Part shown: piece after piece, positions 1,916-28,003 of the stretch | Layout: each line of letters opens with the position of its first letter | Position numbering within the stretch: the first letter of the stretch is position 1 | DNA from: Candidatus Poribacteria bacterium | GTDB lineage: Bacteria > Poribacteria > WGA-4E > UBA9662 | Direction of reading: 5' to 3' | Assembly: GCA_036339735.1 (NCBI GenBank) | Contig: JAYZAL010000088.1 | Span: forward strand, 96,001 to 160,000 | DNA: 64,000 nt | Notes under the pieces: model-generated | What the model saw: the letters and a program-made list of their open reading frames with translations, nothing else | What the model was told of the DNA's origin: nothing | Databases searched by the model: none | Translations under genes and position numbers: made by a program

Positions 1916-2692
1916 ATGTTTTTCAATCATAAAGCTAATAAACTATTCATACTACTGTTAATAGGTATTGTTTCTTCATTGCAAACTCTCAGTTGGTCAG
2001 TAGAACCTGATAAAGATTTACTTCTATATTTTCCAATGGAAAAAGATCTCTTAGATGCCAGTGGAAACAAAAATGATGGAGAACTTGCAAATGGAAAAGT
2101 ATCTTTGCAAAAAGGAAAATTTGGAAAAGCTATTGAATTAGCAACGGATCAGCCAATTGTAATCGAACCTTCGGATAGCTTACATGGGGATATATTTCTC
2201 GAACCGTTTACTTATACCTTATGGATAAACCCAGATTTCAAAGGAACGGAGTGGGGCCATTTATGGCGTAGTTTGCCTGGAGCTTCTGGGCATAATACTT
2301 TATTTCTCAACTCGGCTCAAGGATTATTCTCTTTTAGAGGTGTCGTCGGTGGGTGGACCATTCTCTGTCAAACTGACGGTGGATTAGTCAAAAAGAACAC
2401 TTGGTACCAAGTTACTCTAACTTCTGATACTAAGAAATTTAGAATCTATCTCAATGGAAAGCTAGAAAAAGAAGCTGACTACCAAAAGACAGCAGGAAAA
2501 ATTGCGGAGTTTCGCATCGGTGGTTCTGGTGGTGAAACTTATTCAGGTTTGATAGATGACGTTGCTTTTTACAGACGAGCCTTGGGCAAAAACGAAATCG
2601 AATCCATTACCGAAAGTGGAATGGAAGCGTTTCTCTCAGTCGATCCTAAAAGAAAACTAACGGTCAGTTGGTCCAGAATAAAGACAGAATAG
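1916..2692 (+). CDS. Secreted LamG/concanavalin-A-like jellyroll protein with conserved C-terminal tag
   Basis: N-terminal signal peptide; LLLYFPM...DASGNKNDG, GKFGKA, FTYTLWINP, W.QV..T, YLNG, GLIDDVAFYRRAL; ends SVDPKRKLTVSWSRIKTE. Confidence 0.85.
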   Translation: MFFNHKANKLFILLLIGIVSSLQTLSWSVEPDKDLLLYFPMEKDLLDASGNKNDGELANGKVSLQKGKFGKAIELATDQPIVIEPSDSLHGDIFLEPFTYTLWINPDFKGTEWGHLWRSLPGASGHNTLFLNSAQGLFSFRGVVGGWTILCQTDGGLVKKNTWYQVTLTSDTKKFRIYLNGKLEKEADYQKTAGKIAEFRIGGSGGETYSGLIDDVAFYRRALGKNEIESITESGMEAFLSVDPKRKLTVSWSRIKTE

Positions 2693-2776
2693 ATGATGTC
2701 CAAGGTATCAGCTATCAACTCGATTCCTCGTACAATTTAAATCATCAATATTTGAATCACAATATTTATTGATGGT

Positions 2777-2832
2777 CTTTCGTTGCAGTTACTTATCGGT
2801 CAATGCCGAATGGCAAGTAACTGCAACGAAAG
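2777..2832. terminator. 18-bp perfect inverted repeat between convergent genes (likely bidirectional terminator)
   Basis: ctttcgttgcagttactt (2777-2794) / aagtaactgcaacgaaag (2815-2832). Confidence 0.65.
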
Positions 2833-2996
2833 GACTGATCCGTCAAGTTTTTCTCGATTGTTTAGAATGTAACTAGTAATCGATGTTCAATTTTGGTATC
2901 TGGAACAATTTAATAAAACTTGCGTTTGTCGACTTGTGTAAACTCAGTACGAAACAACAAACACGAAAATTTTATTAGGATGAATAATTCTTTGAA

Positions 2997-4157
2997 TTAA
3001 CAAAAATCGTTCCCGCCTCTGATAATTGTGTAAACGTTTGTAGCACTTGCCACATAGTTGGGCACTTTAAAGTAATCCTTATTCACACATTCGTTTATAC
3101 CGTTTTCCCTGAAGTCTTGTATTACTTCGTTCAAGATTTCTTTCGCAATCCTGAGGCTTTTTCGGGAAATGACCGGTATGACCCATGCTAACGGTGTTGC
3201 CCAAAAAGCTCCATTCTGGTACGTGCCAGTTTCACACGAGATAAATGTTTTATCCCAACCTTTATCTCTTGGCGACAAGTGCTTCAGCTGACCTTTAAAA
3301 AATAGTTTTTCCTTATTATCAATTAAATATTGGATAATTCTGTTCGTTTGCTCTGGGGTTGTTATTCCTACAGCAACAGCAAATGCACTCCCCCAAATAT
3401 CAATTTGTCGACAATCGATAGTAGCAGCCAAAAACATTCCTGATTCGCTATCATAAAGCTTGCTGATATTTTTCTTAATGTTTTCTCTCCAAATCCTGTA
3501 GCATTCCCCGCTATCTATGGAATATTTCATGCATAATTTTTCCATTTCCATACTAGATTGAAAAAACAAAAGAGATGAGAATAAAAGATTACCAGTCTTT
3601 TTCACAATATCCGTGAATCCATAGTTACACTGAGGATTCAAGGGGTCATTGAATACTAAACCATCTTTATCTCTATTAACAAATCGTAACCCATCTTTAA
3701 TAACCGTTTGCATTTTCGTAAAGAATTCATCATCTTCAAAACGGTTAGTGTACGAACATAAAAGCAATGCCGTGAATGGACCATTATCAAGTGCATGATC
3801 GGCTAGCGGACTTAAATCTCCTCCAGGACTATATATTGGTTGACCATCGGAATTTACTCGGTCAGGCATGCAACCATCTTTTCTCTGTCCATTTATCAAA
3901 TACTTGATGCAAATCTTGATTTCTTCTGGATCCATCAGGTCTCCAGCATATTCGACCATATAGTAGAAATCTCTCGTCCATAAGGCTTTGTAATTACCTA
4001 TACCGTCTGGTGTATAAAGCCATAAACCTGATGATGACCTTATTCTAGACCCATTTAGTTGATCCTTGGTCGCCTGCGTTAACCAATATGTATCAGCTCG
4101 AGAAGGGCCATATGTATTTTCAGAAAAATTAAAGTCTTTTGGGTAATGATCCGACAC
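2997..4157 (-). CDS. Six-hairpin (alpha/alpha)6 glycosidase-like protein
   Basis: ALWTRDFYY, YGFTD.V.K.G.LLF.SLL, DIWGSAFAV and YQNGAFWATP motifs; GTG start with AAGGAG RBS. Confidence 0.65.
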   Translation of the reverse strand: MSDHYPKDFNFSENTYGPSRADTYWLTQATKDQLNGSRIRSSSGLWLYTPDGIGNYKALWTRDFYYMVEYAGDLMDPEEIKICIKYLINGQRKDGCMPDRVNSDGQPIYSPGGDLSPLADHALDNGPFTALLLCSYTNRFEDDEFFTKMQTVIKDGLRFVNRDKDGLVFNDPLNPQCNYGFTDIVKKTGNLLFSSLLFFQSSMEMEKLCMKYSIDSGECYRIWRENIKKNISKLYDSESGMFLAATIDCRQIDIWGSAFAVAVGITTPEQTNRIIQYLIDNKEKLFFKGQLKHLSPRDKGWDKTFISCETGTYQNGAFWATPLAWVIPVISRKSLRIAKEILNEVIQDFRENGINECVNKDYFKVPNYVASATNVYTIIRGGNDFC

Positions 4158-4481
4158 CCATCGCTCCTTAAATACCTGTATTATAGGTTAAAAAAGTTTC
4201 GGATTTTCGAACTGTCTGGCTATTTCAGCGAATTTTTGTCATGATGTTTATTACTTAACTTTTAATTTGGTCACTTTGAACGAAATAAGATGAACGCTGA
4301 ATTAGTCGTAGGGATAATGAAATTCAAAAATGAATATTATTGTTCAAAAAGAAGATATCATTCATAAGATATTACTTTCATAGTTCTAACGCAAATGGTT
4401 TTATTGTAAAATAACCTCGTTTGAGAATTCTATAGATTTAAGTTTTAAATATCCATATAAAATGGGAGCTTTCATAATATT

Positions 4482-6488
4482 ATGCAAACTTTTTCTTCTT
4501 CCCTCCTATCAAACGATAAAGATACAGATCAACAACTTGTATTGAAAGGTACAAATGTCACACCACATCTTATCGCGGAATCGATGAGATACAGTGAACC
4601 CCCTGAACCAGCCTCAGGTGCCAAAGTTCAGCTTTTTTTGTACAATAATAGCTCTAAATCTTTGTCGATCACCAATCAAACTCCTGTTCAGTTTGCTGGA
4701 AAATCTGCCCAAGAGTTATTGGAAGAAAATATTTGGTCTTGGCATGACACTCCGTCAGTACGAAACGATTTGGACCTTCTCGATTCAGATCAGATGACCG
4801 TTTGGACTTTCAATAGCAAACACCCAACTTTTGGTCCTAATGCAGAACTGAACATGAAAATTGGTCCTACTAACGAACCATGGCTTTCGGGAAATCTAAG
4901 CCTAAAACCTTCTAAGTGCTGGATGTCATCTGTGACTTTTTTAGCGCCAGAAGGCGAAATCCATCCAGAAAATTTAGTCATTCATATGGCAAACACATCT
5001 GAAAAAGATATTTCTATTAGTTCTTGTCGGCTTTGGCTAGCCAATGAGCCCTCAACTCCCCGTATACTTTCACTACAAAAAATATTGGAGCCAATCAAAT
5101 TATTCAATGATCAAGAGGTAATTCCCGCGAGCGAACTTGGTGGGTTCATGATCAAAACTGATCCACTACCGCTGACATATGCAGCTATTGAGATTATTAT
5201 TACACCAACTGATGGTCCCTCCTATTCTATCTGGTCTTATCTTCGTATCAAAGTGGAACAATTTGATATTTCAGGAGGATGGGTCAACGATTCAGGAAAT
5301 CATCTTCAAAATGAGAATTTTCTTAAAACACTTAAACGACTATATGTCAACACTTCACATAATTCCATTATGGACGGCTATAGCGATACTGATTTGTATG
5401 AAAAGTATCCTTTGAAGTATTTTGGTGGCTTACAGCCTTTTGAAGTTTATGATACCGATGAGATGTTGCCCAAAATCCATGCTGTCGAGTTTTTGGGAGA
5501 GCCACAATATGGCGGAGGAACTCCCGTACCTCCACAAGACGTTTGGGAAGCTCTGTCACCTTACGCTGTTACCCGATTAGCCACTACCTTGACACACAGC
5601 GAAGAACGAATATGGCGTGATTACGCAGGTTTAAGTGATTACCCACATTATGACGCTTATCGTGTGTCGGCACCTTCTCCTGATTCTTGGAGAAAATATG
5701 ATCGTTGGAATGGAAACATAATTGGTTGGGGTTCGCCTCTTGAAACTATTGGAGACATGTGCCGATCACTCAAGGAACTCAATCGACCAATGCCTTGCGC
5801 GATTTGGTCTCAGGGACCTCATCACAATTGGTCGGTATATGATCATCGAACAAGGACCTCTCCGACCCCAACGGAAATTAGAATGCAAGCCTACCACGCT
5901 ATTTCAACACGTATTACTTCGCTTTACTGGTTTAATCTTAGTTTGAAGTCTCTATGCTCATGGAGAGATACTATGGAGGAACTGGTACATATTGGGCGCG
6001 AACTCAGACTGATTGATGAATTTTTATTGGAAGGCGATGCTTATGAGCATAAACGTCTGACGGATACAAATGGACATTTAGATTGGGATATTTCTTCTGT
6101 TTTTGGCCCCAGAGCAGGGATCTTGTTCGCAATGGATATTAACTACGAGCCTGACTTAGAAGAAAGGGTTTTCAAATACGGACCTCCCAGAAATGCACAA
6201 TGGTCATTCTCACTTCCTACTTATTTACAAAAGGTCAGTGATGTATTTAGGATAGATGCTGATGGGGTCTATGATGTCGACTGGAACCTAGTTGACAACT
6301 CGATCGAAATTTCTAACCAAGCCAGTCAAGTTATGGTTTATCTCGCAACTGAGGATCCGAAACTACGATTTAAGCTAGAAGTCAAACGTCAGCAATTATT
6401 GGAAGAAGAAAGCAGAATTGGATTTGATCCTGTGAAAAACGATGCAGACTTTCATACTTTGCAGGAAGTTCTTGGATCTGCAGATTAA
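4482..6488 (+). CDS. Hypothetical protein, possibly with a glycoside-hydrolase-like TIM-barrel C-terminal half
   Basis: 668-aa ORF with GGGAG RBS; pattern LGEP...YDAY...WSQG...PTPTEIRMQAYHA....SLYWF. Confidence 0.55.
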   Translation: MQTFSSSLLSNDKDTDQQLVLKGTNVTPHLIAESMRYSEPPEPASGAKVQLFLYNNSSKSLSITNQTPVQFAGKSAQELLEENIWSWHDTPSVRNDLDLLDSDQMTVWTFNSKHPTFGPNAELNMKIGPTNEPWLSGNLSLKPSKCWMSSVTFLAPEGEIHPENLVIHMANTSEKDISISSCRLWLANEPSTPRILSLQKILEPIKLFNDQEVIPASELGGFMIKTDPLPLTYAAIEIIITPTDGPSYSIWSYLRIKVEQFDISGGWVNDSGNHLQNENFLKTLKRLYVNTSHNSIMDGYSDTDLYEKYPLKYFGGLQPFEVYDTDEMLPKIHAVEFLGEPQYGGGTPVPPQDVWEALSPYAVTRLATTLTHSEERIWRDYAGLSDYPHYDAYRVSAPSPDSWRKYDRWNGNIIGWGSPLETIGDMCRSLKELNRPMPCAIWSQGPHHNWSVYDHRTRTSPTPTEIRMQAYHAISTRITSLYWFNLSLKSLCSWRDTMEELVHIGRELRLIDEFLLEGDAYEHKRLTDTNGHLDWDISSVFGPRAGILFAMDINYEPDLEERVFKYGPPRNAQWSFSLPTYLQKVSDVFRIDADGVYDVDWNLVDNSIEISNQASQVMVYLATEDPKLRFKLEVKRQQLLEEESRIGFDPVKNDADFHTLQEVLGSAD

Positions 6489-6520
6489 TATCGTTTATTA
6501 AATCACTGATATCTTCCTTG

Positions 6521-6588
6521 AAAATAACTTTGTTCAGTTATTAGTCATGTTGATTCATTCAGTCATCAATTGAACAAAGTTATTTTTT
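6521..6588 (+). terminator. Intrinsic terminator-like hairpin
   Basis: aaaataactttgttca (6521-6536) / tgaacaaagttatttt (6571-6586) ending in a T-run, just over 30 nt after stop 6488. Confidence 0.65.
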
Positions 6589-11218: not shown

Positions 11219-13153
11219 TCAGTTCGGAAATACGCGGTACATTGGAATGTCGAGCAGGGTACCAATGAGGCTAAAAATACTACCGCTTAAGTAGTCCCCC
11301 AGCAGCAGACCAATAAAAAATGGCATTGCTTTTCGGTATAGACGAATCCCACCGTACTGGAGAATAACCTTTTTTAGGCACCAAGACACAAACATTGGTG
11401 TCCAAATTAGGTCCATGTTAAAACTATGACCAACTGCATAACCAATTGGATGGATCGGCCACCACAAAAAGTGAGTACGTAAAAACATCAGAAGGAAGGT
11501 TGCTAAAATCCCACCACTGATAAAGGGTAAGCTACTGAAACCAATGTCAGTTGGAAAATCCAGCCAGTTTTGCAACTGGCGATATGGAATCAGCCCCATG
11601 TTCGTACGCCATGAGTTGACGTACGGTGTACCTGCCCCCTTAATATAATACATTCTGAGGATATTCCAGTAAGCAGCAATAATACCGACGATCATTGCCA
11701 ATACAATAATGCCTAACATAGATCGAGTTTCTATTTTACTGACTTTGCCAATTCGAAGACCTTCCAACTGGTGTGGCATCACTGCACAACGATAATCTAG
11801 ATTAAACCATTGAAAGTAAGCCAAAATAGTTAAGTCCCTTGGATTTAGTAATCTGGAACCAGCCACATGTACGATCAATTGTGGTGGATTTATATAGGGA
11901 CCAAAATTCCATATTACGCCACCTTCCGAGCGTATTCTTGTCAATCCAATCATATAAAACAGAAACAAAGATATAAAGATAATACCCACGATTAAGCGCA
12001 AGCCGGCCAAATAGGAAAAGGTTACTAGTACCAAAATGCCAATCAATAAACCTAACCAAGTATATCGCTCGTGAATAGGCTCATCCGAAGATTGACCCGA
12101 CCAGGCAATATAGAAGGTTTGAAGTAAATGTTTTCGACTGATCCACAAAGCCAAAAAAGCCAGTCCGAGCCATGCTCCAACGCCCTGCTCAAGAATGGCT
12201 GGATAACGACCAGTTGGCCCCCAAACGGATCCTCCTCCACTAATTAATGCGGCTCCCAACACTTGTTGTCCTTTGCGAAATAGAAAGAAAAACCAGCAAC
12301 TAAAAGAAATTTCAAGTGGAATGAAGTAAGTCAAACCAATGACACAAGGGTGAAAAGCCACCGGCAACCAACCTACCGCATTCCACGGCTTTTGACTAAA
12401 TAAGTGTCCAATATCAAAAGGCTTGACTTTTATATAAGGAAGATACGGATAGTAATACTGCAGCGAATTATTAATTTGTATAGTAGCAGCAATTAGGAAG
12501 CCAATCCACAGGTATCGATTTCTCAAGTAATCGCCGAAACGTTTCTCCCTGAGACTCAGTTCCACAGGCAACGTAGTGATGGGGAATGACAGCTGTTCTT
12601 GTTCTAACCATCTCTTCCGTAGAAGTACGTTAATACATAGCATGACCCACAGAAAAGAAAAGGTGAATCCACTCCAAGTCAGGATCGGAATCAGCCATGC
12701 TTTGAGATGGTCAACACGGTAAATAGTTGAATCGCCAAGATACAGTCGTTGAATTGCATCTTTACTTTGTGGCACGAACCAACTTGGTATATTAGGTAAA
12801 AAATCCCGCCAACTATTCTCCGGAGTTTCGTACCAGAATGGATTACACAATGCTGTAACCAGAAACCCGAACATACCAATACCATTGATGCTCATGCCGA
12901 TATTAAGCATGACAAAGATAGTTAGTATTTCGGCGGCCGAAAGAGCGGAATTAGGTACAATCTTTTCTAATACTGTATTAGTCAGTATTAAGAGAAACAA
13001 GATGAAAACGGAACCGATCAGAAGTGAAGTTGAGGTGATTTCAGTCACACCCGTAACCATCTCTGAGTTCGAAACCCAAAATGAGCTAGTAATAATTAGC
13101 AAAAGACCAATCAAAATTGACCTTTTAGTTGCCTTTTGCTCAAGGGTTTTCAT
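11219..13153 (-). CDS. DUF6785/DUF6784-type polytopic membrane protein (putative OPT-like transporter)
   Basis: 644 aa, highly hydrophobic; W.EQEQLSFP, TRIRSEGG, YRCAVMPHQLEG, WWPIHPIGY, YGG..LYRKA.PFF.GL..G. Confidence 0.75.
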   Translation of the reverse strand: MKTLEQKATKRSILIGLLLIITSSFWVSNSEMVTGVTEITSTSLLIGSVFILFLLILTNTVLEKIVPNSALSAAEILTIFVMLNIGMSINGIGMFGFLVTALCNPFWYETPENSWRDFLPNIPSWFVPQSKDAIQRLYLGDSTIYRVDHLKAWLIPILTWSGFTFSFLWVMLCINVLLRKRWLEQEQLSFPITTLPVELSLREKRFGDYLRNRYLWIGFLIAATIQINNSLQYYYPYLPYIKVKPFDIGHLFSQKPWNAVGWLPVAFHPCVIGLTYFIPLEISFSCWFFFLFRKGQQVLGAALISGGGSVWGPTGRYPAILEQGVGAWLGLAFLALWISRKHLLQTFYIAWSGQSSDEPIHERYTWLGLLIGILVLVTFSYLAGLRLIVGIIFISLFLFYMIGLTRIRSEGGVIWNFGPYINPPQLIVHVAGSRLLNPRDLTILAYFQWFNLDYRCAVMPHQLEGLRIGKVSKIETRSMLGIIVLAMIVGIIAAYWNILRMYYIKGAGTPYVNSWRTNMGLIPYRQLQNWLDFPTDIGFSSLPFISGGILATFLLMFLRTHFLWWPIHPIGYAVGHSFNMDLIWTPMFVSWCLKKVILQYGGIRLYRKAMPFFIGLLLGDYLSGSIFSLIGTLLDIPMYRVFPN

Positions 13154-13679: not shown

Positions 13680-14840
13680 ATGAAAAATGAATTTTACCGT
13701 GTAGCAATTTTGGGGTGTCGTAGCCGAGGCCGAGCAGCAGCTCTAGCCTACCATGACCATCCTCGTACTAAGATTGTTGGTCTCTGTGATTTAATTCAAG
13801 ACCGCCTTACTGAATTGGGAAACGAGCTTAGCATAACAGCCCAATACACAAATTTGGGTCGAATGATTGAAGAAACTAAGCCTGATATTGTGGTAATTGC
13901 AACCGGTACAGAGTTTCACTATGATCTTTGTATGCAAGTTCTAGAATATGGGGTTCATATTGAGGTTGAAAAGCCGATGTGTGTTGACTTAGTTCAGGCT
14001 GATGAGGTAATAAGCAAAGCAGAATTAAAGAAATGCAAGATAGCGGTTCACCATCAAGGCCGCGTAGGTCCTGCAATGTTAGCTCTACAGAAGGCTATTG
14101 ACCAAGAGAAAATTGGCGAAATTCGTTATCTATACGGAAGTGGTAAAGGATACTACGGTGGTTATGGACTAATGAACATTGGTACTCATATGATAAATAA
14201 CATGCTCCGGTTCACCCATCAATGCCAAAGTGTTGTCGCTCATACGACGACTAATGGTCGGTCGATTGAAACGAAAGATGTTTTAGCATCTCCAAGTGGC
14301 ATGGGTACGATTACCGGAGAATATATTTCAGCCAGTTTTCAGTTTTCTAGTAATGTTACGGGAACACTTTTACAGCACCGATTTGACAAAATGGATACCA
14401 GCGCTTACGTAATGGAAATTTACGGTTCTGAAGGGCGTTTATTCTGGAGATCCAATCAAGCTTGGTGGCTACCTCAACCTCATTATGTTCCTGGCATGAA
14501 ATGGGAACCCTTAGACCCAATTTTTCCTAAATGTTATCAGCCAGGAAATCTATCGGATGCCGACGATTTTAGTTTTGTCGATGAGTATGTACGAGCACTT
14601 GATAATGATGACCAGCATGAGTGTAGCGGTTATCAAGGCCGACATGTTTTAGAAATTATGATGGGAATCTTTGAATCGTCTACCGATGGAACTAGAGTAA
14701 ATCTGCCTCAAGTAGATCGACAACATCCACTCTTGCGCTGGAGCGCTGACAGCAGTTCAAACGAGAAGAGTGGAAATTTGGAATCGCTACCACGAGACTA
14801 TCCATCATGGCTCTCAAAACTAGGAATTAATAGCTTCTAA
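13680..14840 (+). CDS. Gfo/Idh/MocA family NAD(P)-dependent oxidoreductase
   Basis: VAILGC...G Rossmann start, PDIVVIAT..E.H, EKPM, NIGTH. Confidence 0.9.
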   Translation: MKNEFYRVAILGCRSRGRAAALAYHDHPRTKIVGLCDLIQDRLTELGNELSITAQYTNLGRMIEETKPDIVVIATGTEFHYDLCMQVLEYGVHIEVEKPMCVDLVQADEVISKAELKKCKIAVHHQGRVGPAMLALQKAIDQEKIGEIRYLYGSGKGYYGGYGLMNIGTHMINNMLRFTHQCQSVVAHTTTNGRSIETKDVLASPSGMGTITGEYISASFQFSSNVTGTLLQHRFDKMDTSAYVMEIYGSEGRLFWRSNQAWWLPQPHYVPGMKWEPLDPIFPKCYQPGNLSDADDFSFVDEYVRALDNDDQHECSGYQGRHVLEIMMGIFESSTDGTRVNLPQVDRQHPLLRWSADSSSNEKSGNLESLPRDYPSWLSKLGINSF

Positions 14841-15238: not shown

Positions 15239-15952
15239 ATGCACATGAAAAATAATATTATGTTGATCTTGGCAGGATTTCTATTATTGGTCAGCACAAT
15301 GACCAATATAGAAGCCGGGGTAAAAGTCCCAGGAACAATAATAGGAACAGGTACCAAAGCTTTATTAGGAGGAGACCTGACTGATCCAGAAGATGATGGC
15401 GCACCTGAAGAAGATACAAATTACAATGCCAAATTCACCTCCAGTGATGAGCCAGGATTTGGAGGAGGAGAATTTGCCTTTAATGTATTTGATAATATAC
15501 TTGGGCCAGGAAATGACAAGTGGTGTTGCGGTAAAGGTGGCATAGGAGATGGCGAAGGTATGCATATAACGGCCGAACTTGATGCTCCACATTTATTGAC
15601 ACATTTTACTTTATCTTCAGCCAACGACGTTCCTGATAGAGACCCTACAACTTGGGAAGTTCAAGGATCGAATGATGGCAAAAAATTTACAACCATCTTT
15701 TCTTATGATGGCGATAACCTTTTTACTGATCGGCTTCAGGTCATTCGTTTCGATGCAGGAGAAGACTTCGATGCACAAACCACCGGGTATCGATTTTTCA
15801 GACATATCACTTTCAAAACAGCTAATTGGCCAAACGGAGCTTTCTTTCAAATTGGTGAAATTGAGTATTTTGGCACCCCAGCTGACGATACTGCTGTGAA
15901 TCCTAAGTCCAAGCTTGCAACACAGTGGGGAATATTGAAAAATAATCGGTAA
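15239..15952 (+). CDS. Secreted galactose-binding-like (discoidin/F5-8 type C-like) domain protein, copy 1, with C-terminal tag
   Basis: Signal peptide; NVFDN...KWCC, FTLSSANDVPDRDP..W.VQGSNDG, YRFFR, QIGEIE; ends AVNPKSKLATQWGILKNNR. Confidence 0.75.
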   Translation: MHMKNNIMLILAGFLLLVSTMTNIEAGVKVPGTIIGTGTKALLGGDLTDPEDDGAPEEDTNYNAKFTSSDEPGFGGGEFAFNVFDNILGPGNDKWCCGKGGIGDGEGMHITAELDAPHLLTHFTLSSANDVPDRDPTTWEVQGSNDGKKFTTIFSYDGDNLFTDRLQVIRFDAGEDFDAQTTGYRFFRHITFKTANWPNGAFFQIGEIEYFGTPADDTAVNPKSKLATQWGILKNNR

Positions 15953-15983
15953 ACCTTGTAAAACAATAGTGTTTACTATCTAT

Positions 15984-16023
15984 ACAAGATTGAGGTGAAA
16001 ATAACTAATCACCTCAATCTTGT
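15984..16023 (+). terminator. 15-bp perfect hairpin between the tandem paralogs (terminator or mRNA stabiliser)
   Basis: acaagattgaggtga (15984-15998) / tcacctcaatcttgt (16009-16023). Confidence 0.6.
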
Positions 16024-16071
16024 CTTAGTTGGCACTTATTTTCAAACTTATTTTATGGGAGTCAATTACGA

Positions 16072-16755
16072 GTGAAAGTTAATATTTCGATGTTGTTAGT
16101 GGTTTTACTATTGGTCTCTGTTGTTGATATTTCTATTGCTGAAAAGGACTTAGGTACAGGTACAGACTCACTTCTAGGAGGAGACCTAACTGACCCAGAA
16201 GACGATGGAAAGCCAGAACAAGATAAAAATTACAATGCTAAATTTACTTCTAATGATGAACCTGGTTTCGGAGGAGGAGAATTTGCATTTAACGTATTTG
16301 ATAATGTTCTTGGGCCAAGCAATGATAAATGGTGTTGTGGTAAAGGCGGTGGTGCCAAAGAAGGAATGTGGGTAACTGCAGAATTTGATAAGAAATATGC
16401 ATTGACTCATTTTACCGTATCATCAGCTAATGATGTTCCTGCTAGAGATCCACTGGTATGGGAAGTTCAAGGATCAAACGATGGCAAGAAATTCACTACT
16501 ATTTACTCACATGACGAGAAGAAACCCATTTGGACTCAGAGGCTTCAAGTCATCCGTTTCGACGCGGGAAAAGACTTCAAAAAGCAAACCGTCGGATACA
16601 AATTCTTCCGTCATATTACCACTGAAACTCAATCTTGGCCGAATGGAGCCTACTTCCAGATTGGTGAAATTGAATACTTTGGTGATACGAATTTTCCAGT
16701 AGACCCTAAATCCAAACTAACAAGTTCATGGGGAAGGATCAAAAGTAATCGATAG
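16072..16755 (+). CDS. Secreted galactose-binding-like (discoidin-like) domain protein, copy 2, with C-terminal tag
   Basis: Close paralog of 15239-15952; GTG start, GGGAG RBS; ends PVDPKSKLTSSWGRIKSNR. Confidence 0.75.
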   Translation: MKVNISMLLVVLLLVSVVDISIAEKDLGTGTDSLLGGDLTDPEDDGKPEQDKNYNAKFTSNDEPGFGGGEFAFNVFDNVLGPSNDKWCCGKGGGAKEGMWVTAEFDKKYALTHFTVSSANDVPARDPLVWEVQGSNDGKKFTTIYSHDEKKPIWTQRLQVIRFDAGKDFKKQTVGYKFFRHITTETQSWPNGAYFQIGEIEYFGDTNFPVDPKSKLTSSWGRIKSNR

Positions 16756-16885: not shown

Positions 16886-16922
16886 GATTCTACGAAAAGA
16901 TTCTCTTAAAAGCTAAACTCAC

Positions 16923-19857: not shown

Positions 19858-21396
19858 CTATCTATTCGATATTTTTTTCCTAGTCAGATGTAGGTTGCCT
19901 TTAGGGATGGAAAAAATGAATGCAGTAACAGCAGTGGCTGCAATTCTAGAGTCGCTTCCATAACCAGCATTATCACGATTAGGCTGATAGTAGAAGCTAC
20001 CATCAGGACACTGGGCGAGTGTGAACCACCAACGGTTGGCCTCCATCAACTGGCGAAAGCAGTCGGAATCGACGTTAGCTCCGATAGCTGTATAACCCAT
20101 ACCCATAATTGGTGAGCCATGGGTGTCAGGAAAGCTCTGTGGATGTTGGCCTATTACCTTAGCCTGTAAAAAAGCAAACTTACTATGTTCATTCCCCTGA
20201 TAAGGGCTCAATTGGTGAGCGATGGCAGAAGCTCCTGTACGTCCCATATCAGCCCAATCATTTGGCCCAGCAGGTTGGTCTTTATACCAGACGTAACCAT
20301 TGGCTCCAGCAGAACGTCGCAAAAAGTTATAGGCCGCTACATGCCGGTCTGGGTCAACATCGATTCCACAACGGTGCATCAAGGAGAAAGCTAAAGCCCC
20401 TTGAGCGGTTAGCATACTGATCGGTCCATAACCTTCAAATCCGGGATTGTGTCCCCATCCACCGTGAGAATCCATCTTATCTTTTGGATAAGCGTGAGGA
20501 TGTGTCTCTTTTACTTTTTCATTAATCTGATTCATATCGATGTATTGGGTGGATACCAGAAATTCATATACTTCCTGAATTTCTTTCAGTACCCATTTTT
20601 CTCTTGTGAATAAGTAGTATTCACTCATAACGATAGCTGCAGACATATAACGCCAGTTTATCAGCCAAGAGCTGTCTTCTGAACTTGTGGTCCGTGCGTG
20701 CATCTTTACGTTTTTCTTAACAGCATCTAGATATCGTTTTTCACCGCTAGCCAAAAGAGCTAATGGTGCAAAAGTGTTCTGTGGTGGTATCCCCCAAGAA
20801 CCATCTTCGCCTTGATGGTCGACCAGATACTGATACAGTTGATCCCGAATAAGATTTGTTTTTTTGCAGTCGAATGGGAAATTTTGACCATAGGTTCCAG
20901 ATTGATGCCCGATATTGAGTAGGACATTCTCTGTAGCCCCTCGACGATCTAGAGTTACAGATAAAGCTCCCATCGCTGAGGTGTTTTGGCAATTTTCCAG
21001 TGCGATAGCAAAGTCAAGGACTGGTCCATCAGCGCCAAACTTATCCATACCGTATCCATTTTTGTGTTCGGTATTGAACAGTTCGTTGTTAACACCAATT
21101 ATTAAATCACCAGGAGAGATTTTTCCGTCAGCCGGCGAGCGGGGAAATACATATTTGACTAAAAGATACTTAGGTTTATCAGCTACTAGTTCAACACGGA
21201 TGCCAGTAACACCCAAATTGTAGTACCAGCCCCCAACCACAGCGTCAGGACCAGTTTCAGATTTTTGATTCCAAGGGCTACCATTACCCAAGTAGTGGAC
21301 CTGGGCTGAAGAAAAAGGGACACTACCAAGAATTAGCATAATACCTAGAATTAACAAGATAGGACATTGAAACAATAAAAATAACGTGTTTTTCAT
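19858..21396 (-). CDS. Secreted DUF6288-like protein (PDZ-like domain + alpha/alpha toroid)
   Basis: Signal peptide; YNLGVTG, SPADGKI.PGD.IIG, Q..DGSW, LALLASG, GGWGH, GYG, Q.PDGSF.YQPNRD. Confidence 0.65.
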   Translation of the reverse strand: MKNTLFLLFQCPILLILGIMLILGSVPFSSAQVHYLGNGSPWNQKSETGPDAVVGGWYYNLGVTGIRVELVADKPKYLLVKYVFPRSPADGKISPGDLIIGVNNELFNTEHKNGYGMDKFGADGPVLDFAIALENCQNTSAMGALSVTLDRRGATENVLLNIGHQSGTYGQNFPFDCKKTNLIRDQLYQYLVDHQGEDGSWGIPPQNTFAPLALLASGEKRYLDAVKKNVKMHARTTSSEDSSWLINWRYMSAAIVMSEYYLFTREKWVLKEIQEVYEFLVSTQYIDMNQINEKVKETHPHAYPKDKMDSHGGWGHNPGFEGYGPISMLTAQGALAFSLMHRCGIDVDPDRHVAAYNFLRRSAGANGYVWYKDQPAGPNDWADMGRTGASAIAHQLSPYQGNEHSKFAFLQAKVIGQHPQSFPDTHGSPIMGMGYTAIGANVDSDCFRQLMEANRWWFTLAQCPDGSFYYQPNRDNAGYGSDSRIAATAVTAFIFSIPKGNLHLTRKKISNR

Positions 21397-21545: not shown

Positions 21546-22838
21546 TTATTTGCTCAGATTAATGCAGATTAACTCTTCATCATTGCGGACAAATATATGC
21601 TTATTAGCAAAAGCGGGGTGCGACCAGCAGACACCGCCACGGCGGTTCAACTGATCTTTTGTTGGCTTAATGATTTGGGAACGACTGATCAAATTAACTT
21701 TTTCCGGAGAAAGTTTAGTTAGTAATAATTCTCCTTTCTCATTAAATATCCATACATAATCCCTGTTTTTAACGAAGTGAGCTGTACTCCATCTTTCAAT
21801 AGGAGCAATAGTAACGTCTTCAAAAACACGGTCCCCAGTAGCAATATCTAGACAGCGAAAATGGCCATAGCTATCAATACCGTAAATAAAATCTCCAATT
21901 AATATGGGAGTAGAAATCAGAGAGTGAAGACTATCTGTTTGATGCTCGTCTTCTCCTCTTCGGTGCCACACCTTTTCTGCTCGTAATTCAGATGAGTCAA
22001 GACGAACTAGCATTGAACCATCAAAAAAATTGCTGATAAACACATGGCCTTGATGATGAACTGGGGTCGCAATACCAATGGCCATTCGAGAAGGATGGCA
22101 ATCAATTTCCCAATAAGTTTTTCCACTTTCAGGAGACAAACCAACTAGATGGTTACCCGTATAACATACCAAGACTTTTTCGTTGGCCTGCTTGATCAAA
22201 ATTGGTGTGGAATACGATGCAGGATCTGATCTAGCAGTCCACAATTCCTCACCAGTCTGACGGTCTAATGCCACCAAGCAAGCACTCTTTCCACCGATTT
22301 GTAAAAACAATTTATTTTCTTCTACTACTGGTGAGGCTGCAATCCCCCAAGTTGGCATCTGGATTTGGTAAATCTGATTGAGGTCTTTTTTCCACTTCAC
22401 TTGTCCCGTTTCTGCTACGAAACAATGGAGGTGGCCCATTGTTCCCAAGGCATAAGCCAATCCATCGACAATAACCACAGAGGTTCGTGGACCAGCGGTA
22501 TAACCCACATTTTGATACTGACATTCATAACTATAACTCCAAACACGATGACCTGTTTCGGCTGAGAAACAGTGAACATTTTCTACCTGTTTGGGTTTTG
22601 TTTCTCGGTCCATGACATAAACTCGACCTTCGGATACCGTTGGTCCACTGTACCCACTACCAATAGGTACTCGCCAAGTAGGCTTTTGTAAATCTTCGGT
22701 ATCAAAATGATTAATAATTCCAATTTCATTCCAAGTACCATCCCTGTTAGGTCCTCGCCATTGATACCAATCTTCAGCTGGGAGCCAAACAGATAACAAG
22801 CCAAGTAGGAATAAACATAGCAGGAAACGTCCATTCAT
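21546..22838 (-). CDS. PQQ-binding-like beta-propeller repeat protein (BamB-like, PVC-type)
   Basis: Signal peptide; DWYQWRGPNRDG, GSGYSGP, repeated A.TG...W, SYSTP, WSHPA.AN..IFVRN. Confidence 0.85.
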   Translation of the reverse strand: MNGRFLLCLFLLGLLSVWLPAEDWYQWRGPNRDGTWNEIGIINHFDTEDLQKPTWRVPIGSGYSGPTVSEGRVYVMDRETKPKQVENVHCFSAETGHRVWSYSYECQYQNVGYTAGPRTSVVIVDGLAYALGTMGHLHCFVAETGQVKWKKDLNQIYQIQMPTWGIAASPVVEENKLFLQIGGKSACLVALDRQTGEELWTARSDPASYSTPILIKQANEKVLVCYTGNHLVGLSPESGKTYWEIDCHPSRMAIGIATPVHHQGHVFISNFFDGSMLVRLDSSELRAEKVWHRRGEDEHQTDSLHSLISTPILIGDFIYGIDSYGHFRCLDIATGDRVFEDVTIAPIERWSTAHFVKNRDYVWIFNEKGELLLTKLSPEKVNLISRSQIIKPTKDQLNRRGGVCWSHPAFANKHIFVRNDEELICINLSK

Positions 22839-23150: not shown

Positions 23151-24617
23151 TTATCTGCTAATTGGCTTACTCGCGACCAGACTATTTATATACTCTTCTA
23201 AGTTGGTGTAACCATCACCGTCTTGATCGCTAATGCCATCACTAGGATCTTCCGCGTCTAGTCCGTTTGATTTTTCCCAGTAATTAGGTATACCATCTCG
23301 GTCAATATCCCAATCTTTCGGTCTTTGTTCTGTTGGGTAATGATCCCAACCACCAACTTGTCTTTGTGAGTCAATCAGTACGCCTTTCTGCATAACGATA
23401 TTTTCGATAACTCGTTCGTCTACTGTATCTCGCACTAATGAACAACCTGAATACTTTAGACAGTTTGAATAGGCATCTTTAGCGGTTTGTGTTGGCACAG
23501 AAAACTCACCGCAATCGATTTCTGATTTCAATTCCCATCGATTGCGTGATGTCGACATATAACTCCCAGTATTCGTATATTCTATTGCTGTAAAGTTATC
23601 TGAGTTGAAAACTTCTGACATCCCATCAAAGTAGTTACCTTGAATAAAACCTTTAGCTCTAGTTGTATCATGATCCTTAATTCGTAATGGTGGCGTAGAA
23701 TAATTTTTTGTACATGGACCAGGTCTATAATAGTTATTGATGCAGTTAATTTGTACTCCACCCAAATTCGTTGGACCACTCCAGTTATAATTAACGCAGT
23801 TTCGAAAGTCAACAATCCAGTTCGATCCACCTTTTTTAGCACCAGACCCTATAGTTGGATGACGATTTCTAGAAGTGGAGTAGATATTGCCGTAAATGGT
23901 CGTGTTACCAAAACAGTCTCGTAGCGAAGTGGCCATGGCATGTGCTCCCTTTCGATGGAGCGATCGATTAAGTGCTTCGCTATAAATTAACCACTGTAAC
24001 GTCATGTTCTTATTACCGCGATAATCAGAATTACCATCAATCCCCCAACTTAGCGAAAGATGATCTAGGATAATTTGGTCATTATAGTTTACTGTCATAA
24101 CGTCTGGTGCCGCCCCCTGTTCTTTGTTTTCATCTCCTAGCCTTACGCGAATGTAGCGGACAATGATTTGTTTACTTTCTTTGATAGAAAAATTTTGATC
24201 ACGTAATGTAATTCCTTTACCCGGAGCTGTTTGACCAGCTAAAGTCAAATAACTCTTACCTTTAATTTCCATTGGACTCTTTAAGATAATAGTACCTGCG
24301 ACTTCGAAAACAATTGTTCGAGGCCCATCAGCTGTCTTAATCCCATAACGAAGTGATCCAGGACCGTTATCCTTTAGATTCGTGACTTGGTAAACGTCTC
24401 CACCCCGACCACCTAGGGTATACTTTCCAAAGCCTTCTGCGCCGGGGAAAGCGGCTATTCGGACATCGCCTGATATTGAATCAAATGCTAAAAAAAGAAT
24501 AAGTATATTTACTATCCATATAATCTTAAAAATTCTAATTAGACTACAACAACTGTTTATTCGATTCTCTTGTTCTGTCTTAATAAGGGAATGGTAAGAA
24601 ATTTTCATTTTGCTCAC
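23151..24617 (-). CDS. Pectate lyase-like protein (PL1-type) with C-terminal Ca-binding repeat
   Basis: AFPGAEGFG..T.GGRGG, VTNL.D.GPGSLR, GQTAPG.GI, DH.S.SW..D, R.P; DIDRDGIPNYWE..NGLD...DGDGYTNLEEY. Confidence 0.85.
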   Translation of the reverse strand: MSKMKISYHSLIKTEQENRINSCCSLIRIFKIIWIVNILILFLAFDSISGDVRIAAFPGAEGFGKYTLGGRGGDVYQVTNLKDNGPGSLRYGIKTADGPRTIVFEVAGTIILKSPMEIKGKSYLTLAGQTAPGKGITLRDQNFSIKESKQIIVRYIRVRLGDENKEQGAAPDVMTVNYNDQIILDHLSLSWGIDGNSDYRGNKNMTLQWLIYSEALNRSLHRKGAHAMATSLRDCFGNTTIYGNIYSTSRNRHPTIGSGAKKGGSNWIVDFRNCVNYNWSGPTNLGGVQINCINNYYRPGPCTKNYSTPPLRIKDHDTTRAKGFIQGNYFDGMSEVFNSDNFTAIEYTNTGSYMSTSRNRWELKSEIDCGEFSVPTQTAKDAYSNCLKYSGCSLVRDTVDERVIENIVMQKGVLIDSQRQVGGWDHYPTEQRPKDWDIDRDGIPNYWEKSNGLDAEDPSDGISDQDGDGYTNLEEYINSLVASKPISR

Positions 24618-24770
24618 CCTAGTTACTTAGCCCAAATTGTAAAATAGGAGCTCACACAATTTTGACTGTCTATTTCGATTTGGTGTTATAGTTACTTGTT
24701 TTTGATTGTACAACGGAGAAAATTAATCAGCTCATTATCGGCAAAGAGCTTAATGACGGACTGATTGGAG

Positions 24771-26102
24771 TTAAGCCCAGAGAGTATTTAGTCTTCTGGC
24801 AGTCCGTCCAGATAATGCCTGAAGTGATTTGGCAGCAGATGTGTCTCCAGCCAAATGGGCTAGCATCAGTCGTCCTTCTTCAACACACAGTGTATCTTGC
24901 TGTGGTAGTACTTCTCTTAGAAGAAAAAGCACATATTTGACTAGTCGGAATGGTCCATAGACTCGGATAGATTCGCCGGGAATAGATTCCACTGCGACTG
25001 AAAAAAGATCTTTGATACTAATTATCAAATCAGAATGTGTCAACGTAGGTGAAAGGACAACCGTATAGTACCATCCGAATAGTGATCCAGTTTCACAACC
25101 GTGTGAATCACTAACACCCACTATGGGTAACTCGTTACCCATAGCACGTTCTTCGTAGTAGCGTGCTACCTGTAAAGTGTTAGAATCGACAGATTGTCGA
25201 TCATAACCACCTAGTAATTCATATGCATCGAATGGTTGAGTTTGCAACAAATAAGAAGTTAGGGCACCAGATGGTGAATAACGGTGACCAGTAAACCAAT
25301 AAGGGTGACAAAAAACACCTAAGCCACCACCTTTTCGTATTTTTTCGAAAGACCAGCAGCAGGAAGCATAAACATAACGATCTACACCTGCAGGAAGTGG
25401 ACCGAGTTGTTGCTCAATTTGGTTCACTTCCGCCTGATACTTCTCTTTATCCTCGAATAGTTCGTTTACACTGAAGCTACCACCGAAATTGACTATGTGA
25501 ACTGGATTATTTGGAGGGTGTACTTCTTCACCAGGATAAATTCGTAGATCAATTGGAACCCCATCATAGGCTTGTTTTGCTGCCAACGATGGTTCATATT
25601 TGCGATGGTCGGTCAAGGCCATAAAATCAAGCCCAATCTTTCTACAGCATCCTGCTACATATCCAGGAGATTCTCGCCCATCAGATAGATGGCTGTGCAT
25701 GTGTATGTCGCCCTTGTAAGGCTTTCGATCGAATAAGTCAGGTTGAACTGAATAGAGCCGGAATTCACCAACCAACCTCCGGTTGCTTCCCAAAACCTCT
25801 TCTACGAGCAACACATGCTCTTGTTCCCCCTCAAAGTATTGTGACAGGCGCAAACAGTCATCTATTACTGTCAGGTTCTGTCTATTCTGCTTAGGCCAAC
25901 CACTCTGAAGAGCAATTTCTTCTACAGGATAATAAGTAATCTGGTACTGTCGGTCAGAATTGAAATAGACATGATCAAATAGTGGTCGAATTTTAACAAC
26001 GGTCTCCTTGTCAGCAGGTACGACTTTCGGTAACAATTCGAAAAAACGGTTTTCGGCTTTCATAATTTTCGGCAATAATTTTGTTTTGAATAATCTAATC
26101 AA
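24771..26102 (-). CDS. PHP-domain metallohydrolase
   Basis: YKGDIHMHSHLSDG, DFMALTDH, PGEE, CHPYW, GVSDSH; true start may be the internal Met (MKAENRFF). Confidence 0.8.
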   Translation of the reverse strand: MIRLFKTKLLPKIMKAENRFFELLPKVVPADKETVVKIRPLFDHVYFNSDRQYQITYYPVEEIALQSGWPKQNRQNLTVIDDCLRLSQYFEGEQEHVLLVEEVLGSNRRLVGEFRLYSVQPDLFDRKPYKGDIHMHSHLSDGRESPGYVAGCCRKIGLDFMALTDHRKYEPSLAAKQAYDGVPIDLRIYPGEEVHPPNNPVHIVNFGGSFSVNELFEDKEKYQAEVNQIEQQLGPLPAGVDRYVYASCCWSFEKIRKGGGLGVFCHPYWFTGHRYSPSGALTSYLLQTQPFDAYELLGGYDRQSVDSNTLQVARYYEERAMGNELPIVGVSDSHGCETGSLFGWYYTVVLSPTLTHSDLIISIKDLFSVAVESIPGESIRVYGPFRLVKYVLFLLREVLPQQDTLCVEEGRLMLAHLAGDTSAAKSLQALSGRTARRLNTLWA

Positions 26103-26154
26103 GATTATAAACAGATTTACAATATCGAATGGCTATCATTTCCGTTTATAATCT

Positions 26155-27180
26155 TTAAACTGCGTAAGTTTTCCACTGTCCTAAACACCCTGGTCCCCGC
26201 CTGACGTGTAGTAACCTCTTTTCCGCTTCAGCTATGTAACCTGAAACGGAATACATTCCATCCGCTCCATGACGACATATACCAGCCGGATGACCATCGT
26301 GGTCTGATAAAATCTCTTTTATCACTGGTACCGATAAACATCCTAAGTTCTCTTCGAATAGTTGTCTCGCTCGATCCAGTCTACTGCGGGAATCTGGTAA
26401 GAGGTATCTTTCCTGTGGTGCATAGTCATCTGTCAACGCATGATTGGTATGTACTAACCCATTAGTCCACTTATCTTGCCAAATTGAATGTCCTGATGGA
26501 TAGATTTCAATATCACAAATCTGACCTTCACCGTCACAAATGACTTTGTTTGTCGCTGAACACACCTTGACGCTTTGTAGTAATTCTAGGCATTTGGCCA
26601 GATTGTCTTGTTCCAACAGAATTCTTTTAATTGGGTAATGAGGTATACCGTACTGCCACTGGTAACCATACAGTGCGTTGGTAAAGTGAGCTACTCCATG
26701 TTGATTCAGGCCAGCATATCCTAATTGTCCAGCAAATGTAAATATTAAAGCCCTAGGTTTGCCTGTCGGTTTGAGGTGTAGTAGAATTGCAACATCCTCA
26801 TACTGAGGCTCTAGGTCTTGATTTTGTCCAATCAGCGTTAATCCATCGGTTGTATTCTGACCTGTAAAAGCAAAAGTAGTACAGCCTCCATCTTCCGTTT
26901 GGCTGGCTTCGGTTCTTACTTGACACAAGACTGCTTCTTCCAAGCTAATATCCGCACCATCGGCCAATCCTTGAATTTCAGAGGCAAGATCATTACTAAG
27001 TTGTCTAATCAAAGGCAAGAAGGTTATGGCACGCCGAACCAGAACATCTCTGCTTTGGCCGGTTAGTTTTTCAATCCAAGTCAAGTACTTTTGAACTAAA
27101 TCTTTGGCTTGGCTACCATGTTGATAGCCTAACTGATAAGGAGTACCTGATACCTCGATTAAAGGAAATTCATCGATCAT
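26155..27180 (-). CDS. Peptidase C45 family (Ntn-hydrolase; acyl-CoA:6-APA acyltransferase-like)
   Basis: G.PYQLGYQHG, EI.G.ADGA, GC nucleophile site (GGCTTF), GQNQD, GLN..G, HTNH, S..R, ILSDH. Confidence 0.85.
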   Translation of the reverse strand: MIDEFPLIEVSGTPYQLGYQHGSQAKDLVQKYLTWIEKLTGQSRDVLVRRAITFLPLIRQLSNDLASEIQGLADGADISLEEAVLCQVRTEASQTEDGGCTTFAFTGQNTTDGLTLIGQNQDLEPQYEDVAILLHLKPTGKPRALIFTFAGQLGYAGLNQHGVAHFTNALYGYQWQYGIPHYPIKRILLEQDNLAKCLELLQSVKVCSATNKVICDGEGQICDIEIYPSGHSIWQDKWTNGLVHTNHALTDDYAPQERYLLPDSRSRLDRARQLFEENLGCLSVPVIKEILSDHDGHPAGICRHGADGMYSVSGYIAEAEKRLLHVRRGPGCLGQWKTYAV

Positions 27181-27205
27181 CGTTAACTATTTCGGACTGA
27201 TTTTA

Positions 27206-28003
27206 TTATGGTCGAAATTTGACAGTAGCCCAACATGTTGTCAATTTGTCAGTCAAATCTACTGATGCGGTTCCATTATATTCCAACATGAATAGTCCAC
27301 CAGCATACCCTTTATAAGCATGGGCATTTTTAATTCCACCTTTTTTGGAACCAATACTGTGGCTGGTGCGGATTAGGAATTCTCCATCGTTACCTGAACG
27401 AATATTTTCCCATCTGGCAATTAGTCCTTTATTATTTTGGCCTGTGCTAAACTCAACACTATCTTCGTCTACCTTTTGAGCTGTTGCAGAAGATGTATAA
27501 GTGAAGTTCTCAGCTCCCATAATTTTCCAGTTAGTTACTCGATCTTTGTAATCTGGGCCACCATTTCTGTTAACTGTACCGACAAAAGTATAGACACCAC
27601 CCGGTTTTAGTCCGGAAAATATCAAATCAAGATACCACCCTGGCCCATCGTTGTAACTCATATTGCCACTAGCATCAACAACATCCTTGAAGATTTTATC
27701 GGCGTCACTACCATTATCGAACATGGATTCATCCTTAGCCCAGTTAATTGAGTTACCTTGCGATTTATGTTCAACAAAACTAGCTGTCACTCCCGTTTCT
27801 TTACCTGTCTTAAACTGAAGGAGTTGGCCTTCTTCTGGAAATGGGTTGCCTCGACCAAGTCCGTAATTAGTAACATTTTTCTTTTGAAATTGAATGCCTT
27901 TTTCGTAGGCACAATCATTGAAGGCTCTCCATTCTGCTGACACTATACTGAATCCAGTTGAGATAAGGATTAAACAAAATATCCATTTTTTATCAGTCCA
28001 CAT
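27206..28003 (-). CDS. Secreted hypothetical protein with conserved C-terminal tag
   Basis: Start moved to ATG 28003 (GGAG RBS; signal peptide MWTDKKWIFCLILISTGFSIVSA); ends SVDLTDKLTTCWATVKFRP. Confidence 0.65.
   Translation of the reverse strand: MWTDKKWIFCLILISTGFSIVSAEWRAFNDCAYEKGIQFQKKNVTNYGLGRGNPFPEEGQLLQFKTGKETGVTASFVEHKSQGNSINWAKDESMFDNGSDADKIFKDVVDASGNMSYNDGPGWYLDLIFSGLKPGGVYTFVGTVNRNGGPDYKDRVTNWKIMGAENFTYTSSATAQKVDEDSVEFSTGQNNKGLIARWENIRSGNDGEFLIRTSHSIGSKKGGIKNAHAYKGYAGGLFMLEYNGTASVDLTDKLTTCWATVKFRP

Follow-up and report, generated by a model that had tools for sequence, protein, structure and literature searches.

Four secreted proteins encoded in a 64,000-nucleotide stretch of a Candidatus Poribacteria genome (contig JAYZAL010000088.1 of assembly GCA_036339735.1; the whole stretch is referred to below as the window) end in the same short peptide, here called the tail. 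The analysis of this genome and of its relatives revealed that the tail is a genuine, abundant, modular and phylum-wide C-terminal tag on Sec-exported proteins. Because of its position, its portability, its selectivity, its exchange with a cassette made of a dockerin and the C-terminal domain (CTD) of the type IX secretion system (T9SS), and its link to cohesins, the tail may well be a portable docking or address tag that acts after Sec export, a reading of the sequences that we consider plausible, if somewhat short of probable.

The tail motif is confined to the C terminus

The window forms part of contig C88 of an assembly (genome G000) of 4.32 Mb in 107 contigs, with a G+C content of 40.6% and a completeness of 92%. 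Translation of the four open reading frames (ORFs) reproduced the shared motif, the endings and the coordinates exactly as quoted in the initial annotation, and Pfam agreed with the three unrelated types of cargo proposed there, namely, LamG, discoidin (twice) and a protein without a family (Table 1). The last 20 residues of these four proteins are untouched by any Pfam or NCBIfam model. For the gene on the reverse strand, translation probably begins at the ATG at 28054 or 28003.

The search space consisted of all stop-to-stop ORFs of the genome with 40 or more amino acids (aa), 36,481 in number. The motif of the initial annotation, used as a regular expression, matched 18 of these, with the motif end 1 to 4 residues before the stop in all cases. 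A hidden Markov model (HMM) built from the regular-expression matches and iterated once, applied with a threshold of at least 10 bits and a match end no more than 15 residues from the stop, recognized 89 ORFs at their C terminus. The single match elsewhere concerned a spurious 41-aa ORF, so that 89 of 90 matches show the strict C-terminal position that the initial annotation had singled out for checking. At 10 bits or more, the reversed ORFs gave no match and the shuffled ORFs gave one. Five additional paralogues carry degenerate tails below the threshold. Many contigs start or stop in or beside tail-protein genes (C2, C13, C32, C42, C49, C70, C74, C76, C81, and C87); paralogous tail families thus seem to break the assembly, and the 89 ORFs represent a lower bound.

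The consensus of 88 tails, [LTF][ASP]-V-[DES]-[PAS]-[KR]-x-K-L-[TAS]-T-[TS]-W-[GAS]-x-[IL]-K, spans about 16 residues. Its Trp is present in 88 of 88 sequences, and its last Lys is followed in 87 of 88 by 1 to 7 variable, often basic residues, most commonly by 3. At the conserved Leu all six codons of this amino acid occur, and at the conserved Val and Thr all four; where residues are identical, the third codon positions have an identity of 0.42, and among 3,828 pairs of tails a single one is at least 90% identical in DNA. With codons this mixed and DNA identity this low, the tail is not a DNA repeat. Selection on the tail acts at the peptide level, not at the DNA level.

Table 1. Tail proteins of the window and further features used for comparison. 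Positions are those of the window unless a contig of G000 is named. AF2, AlphaFold2.
Feature	Location	Strand	Tail	Basis
Signal peptide + Laminin_G_3 + tail	1916..2692	+	2636-2689, SVDPKRKLTVSWSRIKTE	Pfam; AF2 model
Signal peptide + F5_F8_type_C (discoidin) + tail	15239..15952	+	15893-15949, AVNPKSKLATQWGILKNNR	Pfam
Signal peptide + F5_F8_type_C (discoidin) + tail	16072..16755	+	16696-16752, PVDPKSKLTSSWGRIKSNR	Pfam; AF2 model
Signal peptide + cargo without Pfam/NCBIfam family + tail	27206..28096	-	27209-27265, SVDLTDKLTTCWATVKFRP	
GSDH domain + type I dockerin + T9SS type A CTD (non-tail comparison protein)	35135..36862	+		Pfam/NCBIfam match
PorU-like ORFs of G000 (L196, L197)	C38:117622-123828; C16:26839-32994			

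Tail proteins are exported and carry unrelated cargo

A start codon is present in 87 of the 89 tail ORFs, the other two being cut by contig ends. Among these 87, a signal-peptide-like N terminus was found in 82, compared with 521 of 1,412 background ORFs of 200 to 360 aa; the five without it are fragments, three of them situated at contig ends and the other two being short ORFs, and every complete tail protein has such an N terminus, in line with the expected association of tail and signal peptide. Two tail proteins of G000 bear a lipobox. The tail proteins are small, with 196 to 530 aa and a median of 259 aa (82 proteins of at least 120 aa).

When signal peptide and tail were removed, the cargo fell into 23 blastp clusters, the largest of which has 36 members. 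Pfam assigned Laminin_G_3 to 4 of 28 cargo representatives, 3-keto-disaccharide hydrolase (DUF1080) to 2, Cohesin to 2, and HmuY, CBM9_1 and a DUF3108-like family to 1 each; 4 further matches were below threshold and 13 representatives had no family. Use of the tail is also selective, as had been proposed from the window. There, six other signal-peptide-like proteins lack it (19858-21396, 21546-22838, 23151-24617, 39166-40491, 40503-41207, and 57009-58244), and in a crude secretome, made up of 639 ORFs with a signal-peptide-like N terminus and no hydrophobic segment further on, the tail is found on 73 (~11%) and the T9SS CTD on 29.

The tail occurs throughout Poribacteria and in the sea

The phylum was searched with a profile of 32 tails from unrelated cargo (alignment A2). 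This profile had matches in all 121 genomes of the phylum of the window (8 families, 19 genera), mostly at least 70 per genome, with a lowest count of 20. Three further genomes, one of which could be assigned to this phylum, gave 108, 129, and at least 150 matches; the number of tails per genome across Poribacteria is thus about 100 to 150 or more. When one genome per GTDB species was scanned, as a sample and not as a census, with a degenerate DNA pattern encoding KLTTTWGx[ILVFM]K, at least 136 stretches matched. The 80 titled ones were assigned to Poribacteria (72), "uncultured bacterium" (5), "Pseudomonadota bacterium" (2) and Synechococcus (1). Among the matches listed, 144 of 146 motif matches end 1 to 8 residues from the stop, a count in which some appear twice because loci overlap. 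The Synechococcus match is due to chance: it lies in a short ORF, 45 residues from the stop, and that genome has no profile match. The named homologues of the discoidin and LamG proteins of the window are from Candidatus Poribacteria. The occurrence of similar tails in this phylum, to which the initial annotation had pointed, is therefore borne out by named homologues, phylum genomes and pattern scan alike.

Metagenomes from seawater and other marine sources, belonging to 12 studies, contain the stretch 15239-16755, and so do 6 metatranscriptome runs. Since it occurs in seawater, the genome represents a pelagic population, and the tag is not confined to sponge symbiosis. In four RNA libraries from four studies, contigs span both discoidin genes with their tails and end near the boundaries of the gene pair. 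This is a weak hint of transcription of the pair, as RNA libraries may hold DNA.

A distant second lineage has the same tag

Outside Poribacteria, the tail was found in 4 of 61 sampled genomes of a second lineage (lineage 2), with 4, 14, 15, and 5 matches, and in none of the other 57. Two lineage-2 entries, the tail-positive genome G122 and the protein P0202, are labeled "Pseudomonadota bacterium" at NCBI. Three of the four tail-positive genomes (G143, G168, G174, and G122) consist of a single contig along which the matches are spread, and contamination as the source of the tail in the "Pseudomonadota" genome was rejected on account of the matches across these single-contig relatives. The tail proteins of lineage 2 have 309 to 473 aa and signal peptides or lipoboxes, the latter in several proteins of G143; examples end in AVDSKDKLAVTWGALKRAQ and PVAAKGKQTTTWGELKKEE. 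Pfam found ankyrin repeats in 3 of 10 and no family in 6. The portability of the tag, first proposed from three cargo types, thus extends to 23 unrelated cargo groups in G000 and to ankyrin-repeat proteins in lineage 2. In one lineage-2 family, 19 of 20 members (55 to 93% identical to the query) end in PVNPAGKLA[ST]TWGxIK.

The G+C content of G143 is 52.7%, and its proteins have a median identity of 33% to those of G000. Judged from these sequences, lineage 2 is a distant lineage with the same specific tag, which appears to be shared horizontally. In G174, adjacent pairs of short ORFs end in identical 22-residue stretches (L190, 10271-11157; L191, 5447-6409), which suggests small repeated elements in lineage-2 genomes.

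The tail replaces a dockerin-CTD cassette on related cargo

The model of the T9SS type A CTD had 42 matches in G000, and our own CTD profile recognized 56 ORFs, with a median length of 1,257 aa among the 50 of at least 150 aa. No ORF has both elements (89 tail ORFs, 56 CTD ORFs). A type I dockerin directly precedes the CTD in 4 of 4 CTD proteins examined; in the whole of G000, 13 dockerin matches were obtained at an E value of 0.001 or less. The dockerin matches of G000 lie in large ORFs, several of which also have a CTD. Two cases place the tail and this cassette on the same cargo. One is P0176, a LamG homologue from a metagenome with 42% identity over 80% of the query; its sequence runs on into dockerin, linker and CTD at the position at which the tail of the window protein starts. 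In G143, paralogous lipoproteins with metzincin-like and ankyrin regions are collinear up to one junction, after which they have either dockerin and CTD or the tail. From these alignments, the tail is, in both lineages, apparently a short alternative to the long dockerin-CTD cassette on related cargo.

Cohesins, the partners of dockerins, are themselves among the tagged proteins. In G000, cohesin PF00963 had 11 matches, distributed over 8 ORFs. Of these ORFs, L012 and L013 have the tail at their end and several others a CTD; one more, which resembles L012, is truncated by the end of its contig. L012 begins 73 bases downstream of a gene for a Big_9/cadherin protein with dockerin and CTD, on the same strand (C91:3754-7587; L012, L165). 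With a cohesin-tail gene directly downstream of a dockerin-CTD gene, both products should meet in one compartment. As an observation in its own right, a cohesin-dockerin network occurs here in a Gram-negative marine phylum, with loci at C91:3754-7587 (L012, L165) and C79:53959-57761 (L017, L166).

The tail has the character of an amphipathic beta-strand and lies outside the cargo fold

The AF2 model of the LamG protein, made from an alignment of 39 sequences, had a mean predicted local distance difference test score (pLDDT) of 84.7. Most 10-residue blocks of its domain average about 90 or more, and the tail (residues 242-258) is below 50. The discoidin model (16072..16755) was poor overall, with a mean pLDDT of 59.5, and its tail (residues 210-227) was also below 50. 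In these two models the tail is thus not an integral strand or helix of one shared fold, and the folds of the tagged cargo differ. The same discoidin family has a second conserved, apparently unstructured segment: its mature N terminus, LGTGTxSLLGGDLTDPEDDG (residues 28-46), is nearly invariant in 42 sequences, and despite this its pLDDT is below 50.

The hydrophobic moment of the tail at 160 degrees is 0.518, compared with 0.283 ± 0.016 for shuffled sequences, and at 100 degrees it is 0.233, under the shuffled value of 0.283. The tail therefore looks like an amphipathic beta-strand and not like an amphipathic helix; a helix with L, W, and I at positions i, i+4, and i+7 was ruled out by the low value at 100 degrees. 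Tail proteins have a mean net charge of +2.3 within their last 20 residues, and the best 15-aa Kyte-Doolittle mean within the last 30 residues has a median of 0.27, with no stretch of transmembrane (TM) grade. The short, basic and amphipathic segment without a TM helix that the initial annotation had described is thereby upheld, with the refinement that it is amphipathic as a strand rather than as a helix.

This strand character, and the fact that most G000 cargo consists of beta-sandwiches (LamG, discoidin, DUF1080-like, CBM9, and cohesin), would suit a tail that is a structural element, either an edge strand packing in cis on its own cargo or a strand for homo-oligomerization. We regard this as very improbable: AF2 leaves the tail undocked from the confidently modeled LamG domain, the tail is also found on alpha-helical ankyrin cargo, and the same cargo occurs with dockerin and CTD instead. 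The cis-packing form is largely refuted.

Another possibility is that the tail serves processing or turnover, as a protease site (propeptide or degron) or through modification of its Thr run or Lys. The tail must sit near the free chain end (with 1 to 7 residues after the Lys in 87 of 88), the models leave it unstructured, and it combines a conserved Lys with a core rich in Thr; moreover, universal proteases (SppA, S41-type) would be present in either lineage and would thus be consistent with the searches described below, which yielded no lineage-specific reader. However, a degron or propeptide shared by more than 20 unrelated small binding domains and absent from enzymes of the same secretome is hard to explain, and the swap with dockerin and CTD points to localization. 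We therefore judge processing to be improbable.

Known sorting machinery as a candidate reader of the tail

The exosortase family PF09721 had no match in G000, where absence is not proof given a completeness of 92%. SprA-like, PorU-like and PorV-like matches, all weak and below curated cutoffs, were found in G000 and in the complete Poribacteria genome G003, which served as a control. They comprise one SprA-like ORF of 2,172 aa, several PorV-like barrels per Poribacteria genome examined, and two PorU-like ORFs per Poribacteria genome (Table 1), whose ~2,050 to 2,140 aa (~2,050 to 2,070 aa in G000) are about twice the length of the 1,095-position PorU model. According to a 2014 paper, Poribacteria have CTD proteins but no Por structural genes (PMC3909097).

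In lineage 2, SprA was not detected in any of the 61 genomes, either with the family model or with the G000 protein as query, nor was cohesin, the four tail-positive genomes included. Neither the PorU peptidase region nor PorV was detected in the tail-positive genomes G143, G168, G174, and G122, with the control G003 positive for both as well as for SprA. CTD proteins were absent from the tail-positive genomes G168 and G174. A search for GldM gave no match anywhere, controls included. Since lineage 2 has no detectable SprA, PorU, PorV or cohesin, none of them can be the universal reader of the tail; T9SS core parts, cohesin and exosortase cannot have this role.

These results bear on the idea that the tail is a minimal T9SS secretion signal, read by a PorV- or PorU-like part, that crosses the outer membrane like a CTD of 70 to 100 aa. 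G000 has a SprA-like ORF, two PorU-like ORFs, several PorV-like barrels and at least 42 type A CTD proteins, the tail interchanges with dockerin and CTD on paralogous cargo, and tail and CTD are mutually exclusive. On the other hand, four tail-positive lineage-2 genomes, three of them single contigs, lack SprA, the PorU peptidase region and PorV in a search in which G003 was positive, G168 and G174 have no CTD protein at all, and the profiles of tail and CTD are dissimilar. In addition, we know of no T9SS signal as short as the tail. The absences in lineage 2 thus weaken this explanation, which we consider unlikely, and leave room for a T9SS route in Poribacteria only.

Proposed role of the tail

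In the docking and address reading that we prefer, the signal peptide would bring the tail protein into the periplasm. The tail would stay flexible beside the folded cargo and offer a basic, amphipathic beta-strand with a free end, which could dock on one conserved envelope partner by beta-strand addition or by a comparable fit into a groove. Docking would then fix small binding modules (lectin-like, cohesin, HmuY-like, and ankyrin) at the outer membrane or cell surface.

Several points weigh against this proposal. The lipobox on some tail proteins implies that simple anchoring cannot be the whole function. Cargo similar to DUF1080/3-keto-disaccharide hydrolases could equally function in the periplasm, and a surface location is deduced from the cohesin/dockerin and HmuY-like cases only. 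A low pLDDT denotes that no structure is predicted and is not proof of a docking peptide. Furthermore, the neighborhoods of tail genes in G000 revealed no non-tail gene family specifically tied to them: the families that recur within 4 kb (PhyH-like, 20; Gfo/Idh/MocA, 16; sulfatases, 11; FGE-sulfatase-like, 9; TPR; DUF6785) are simply the big families of the genome. Nor did a common candidate emerge from the neighborhoods in G168, G174, and G122, where an ABC ATPase in one genome and an LD-carboxypeptidase-like ORF in another were read from motifs only. When G000 was compared with 1.6 Mb (73%) of G143, no unusual shared exported protein emerged. The shared ones are housekeeping envelope proteins only, such as BamA, penicillin-binding proteins (PBPs), SppA and a PD40 propeller; housekeeping functions prevail among the 20 with Pfam annotation, and by our judgment the 22 pairs of highest identity are of housekeeping size and type. 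No partner thus emerged, and a protein reader would be either universal or outside the compared set. For the docking or export signal read by a machine that the initial annotation had envisaged, this means that T9SS core parts, cohesin and exosortase are excluded as universal reader and that the searches yielded no other; the proposal itself stays conditional.

With more reserve, we suggest that the tail could belong to an undescribed sorting or surface-attachment system, in which a linear beta-strand address of ~16 residues, free of TM helix and folded domain, is recognized by a conserved envelope receptor outside the sortase/exosortase and T9SS families. Upward of a tenth of the secretome predicted for the phylum would use such an address, which might have passed horizontally, together with its reader or onto a universal reader, to an unrelated lineage that tags ankyrin proteins with it.

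In the case of LPXTG, PEP-CTERM and the T9SS CTD, study of the tag has each time brought a dedicated envelope machine to light. The present tag marks about 90 proteins in G000 and delimits a large group of binding modules that probably belong to the surface or envelope. The tagged set would represent a lectin-like "sensor and grabber" repertoire of glycan degraders and offers a handle on an uncultured, globally distributed phylum. The tag also links to the cohesin-dockerin network and provides a concrete peptide, and lineage 2, with 4 genomes that have it and 57 that do not, forms a natural contrast for the search for a reader. If that reader is indeed new, the tail would constitute a very short tag for envelope display.

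Other features of the window and its genome

The exported protein encoded at 19858-21396 (-) has a PDZ domain followed by DUF6288. PDZ domains are binders of C-terminal peptides; the variable last residues of the tail argue against a canonical PDZ ligand role. The surroundings of tail genes with PhyH-like, Gfo/Idh/MocA and sulfatase genes, including those at 28284-29126, 13680-14840, and 29707-31179 of the window, look like glycan utilization neighborhoods. Large multipass membrane proteins with DUF6785 and DUF6784 are encoded at 3-1526 (+) and 11219-13153 (-). The genome has 33 paralogues of ~630 to 690 aa, a striking expansion of an uncharacterized family. A link of these genes to tail genes, which the window had seemed to show, was rejected, since only 5 of the 33 copies lie within 4 kb of one, compared with 11.6% of the genome that is this near.

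Comparison with known systems

The tail is covered by no model of NCBIfam (release 20) or Pfam, and a description of it was not found in the full-text literature on Poribacteria and sponge symbionts, a coverage that leaves out most subscription journals. The T9SS CTD resembles it in being C-terminal, portable over cargo, abundant per genome and located on Sec-exported proteins. Nevertheless, the type A CTD models (TIGR04183/PF18962) matched none of the four tail proteins of the window, with a match to the comparison protein at 35135-36862, and hhalign gave a probability of 0.15% for 71 tails against 40 CTDs of G000, that is, no profile similarity, in agreement with the initial annotation, which had set the tail apart from the CTD. 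The CTD is a folded, Ig-like domain of ~70 to 100 aa on large proteins (median, 1,257 aa), whereas the tail has ~16 to 20 aa, is unstructured in the models, is borne by small proteins (median, 259 aa) and occurs also in genomes without detectable SprA, PorU and PorV.

PEP-CTERM, GlyGly-CTERM, MYXO-CTERM and LPXTG are likewise short C-terminal tags on many unrelated exported proteins of one genome. Tags of the PEP-CTERM type consist of a motif, a TM helix and a basic cluster and are cut by a membrane transpeptidase; the tail, in contrast, has no stretch of TM grade. PEP-CTERM models (TIGR02595/PF07589) matched neither the window proteins (E ≤ 1) nor the homologues so named by NCBI (E ≤ 10). The latter (P0057, P0074, and P0082, homologues of the protein at 16072-16755) are called "PEP-CTERM sorting domain-containing protein," yet they end in the tail. 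We could not reproduce this name, as no NCBIfam match was obtained at an E value of up to 10, and the label is probably a misannotation.

The type I dockerin (PF00404) is also a C-terminal docking module, and the cassette that it leads is replaced by the tail at the same junction in two lineages. It has, however, ~60 aa with two Ca-binding loops, whereas the tail gives no Pfam match; Dockerin_1 had no match on the tail proteins scanned (4 from the window, 28 representatives, and 10 from lineage 2). The C-terminal anchors of Escherichia coli PBP5 and PBP6 share with the tail the combination of a signal peptide and a short C-terminal segment without TM helix, which in these proteins holds a periplasmic protein at the membrane. 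They differ in that the tail is not amphipathic as a helix, its moment at 100 degrees being below that of the shuffles, and such anchors are usually far less conserved in sequence than the tail.

Peptides that act by beta-augmentation, namely, the beta-signal of outer membrane proteins (OMPs), the TonB box, PDZ ligands and the donor strands of pili, form the last group. The tail ends in variable, often basic residues and not in an aromatic one as the OMP beta-signal does; its cargo consists of soluble domains and not of barrels or pilins; and its conserved part lies 1 to 7 residues from the carboxyl end, unlike that of PDZ ligands. These peptides bind by adding to the sheet of a partner, the mode of action proposed here for the tail, and they share with it that they are short amphipathic beta-strands at or near the end of the chain.

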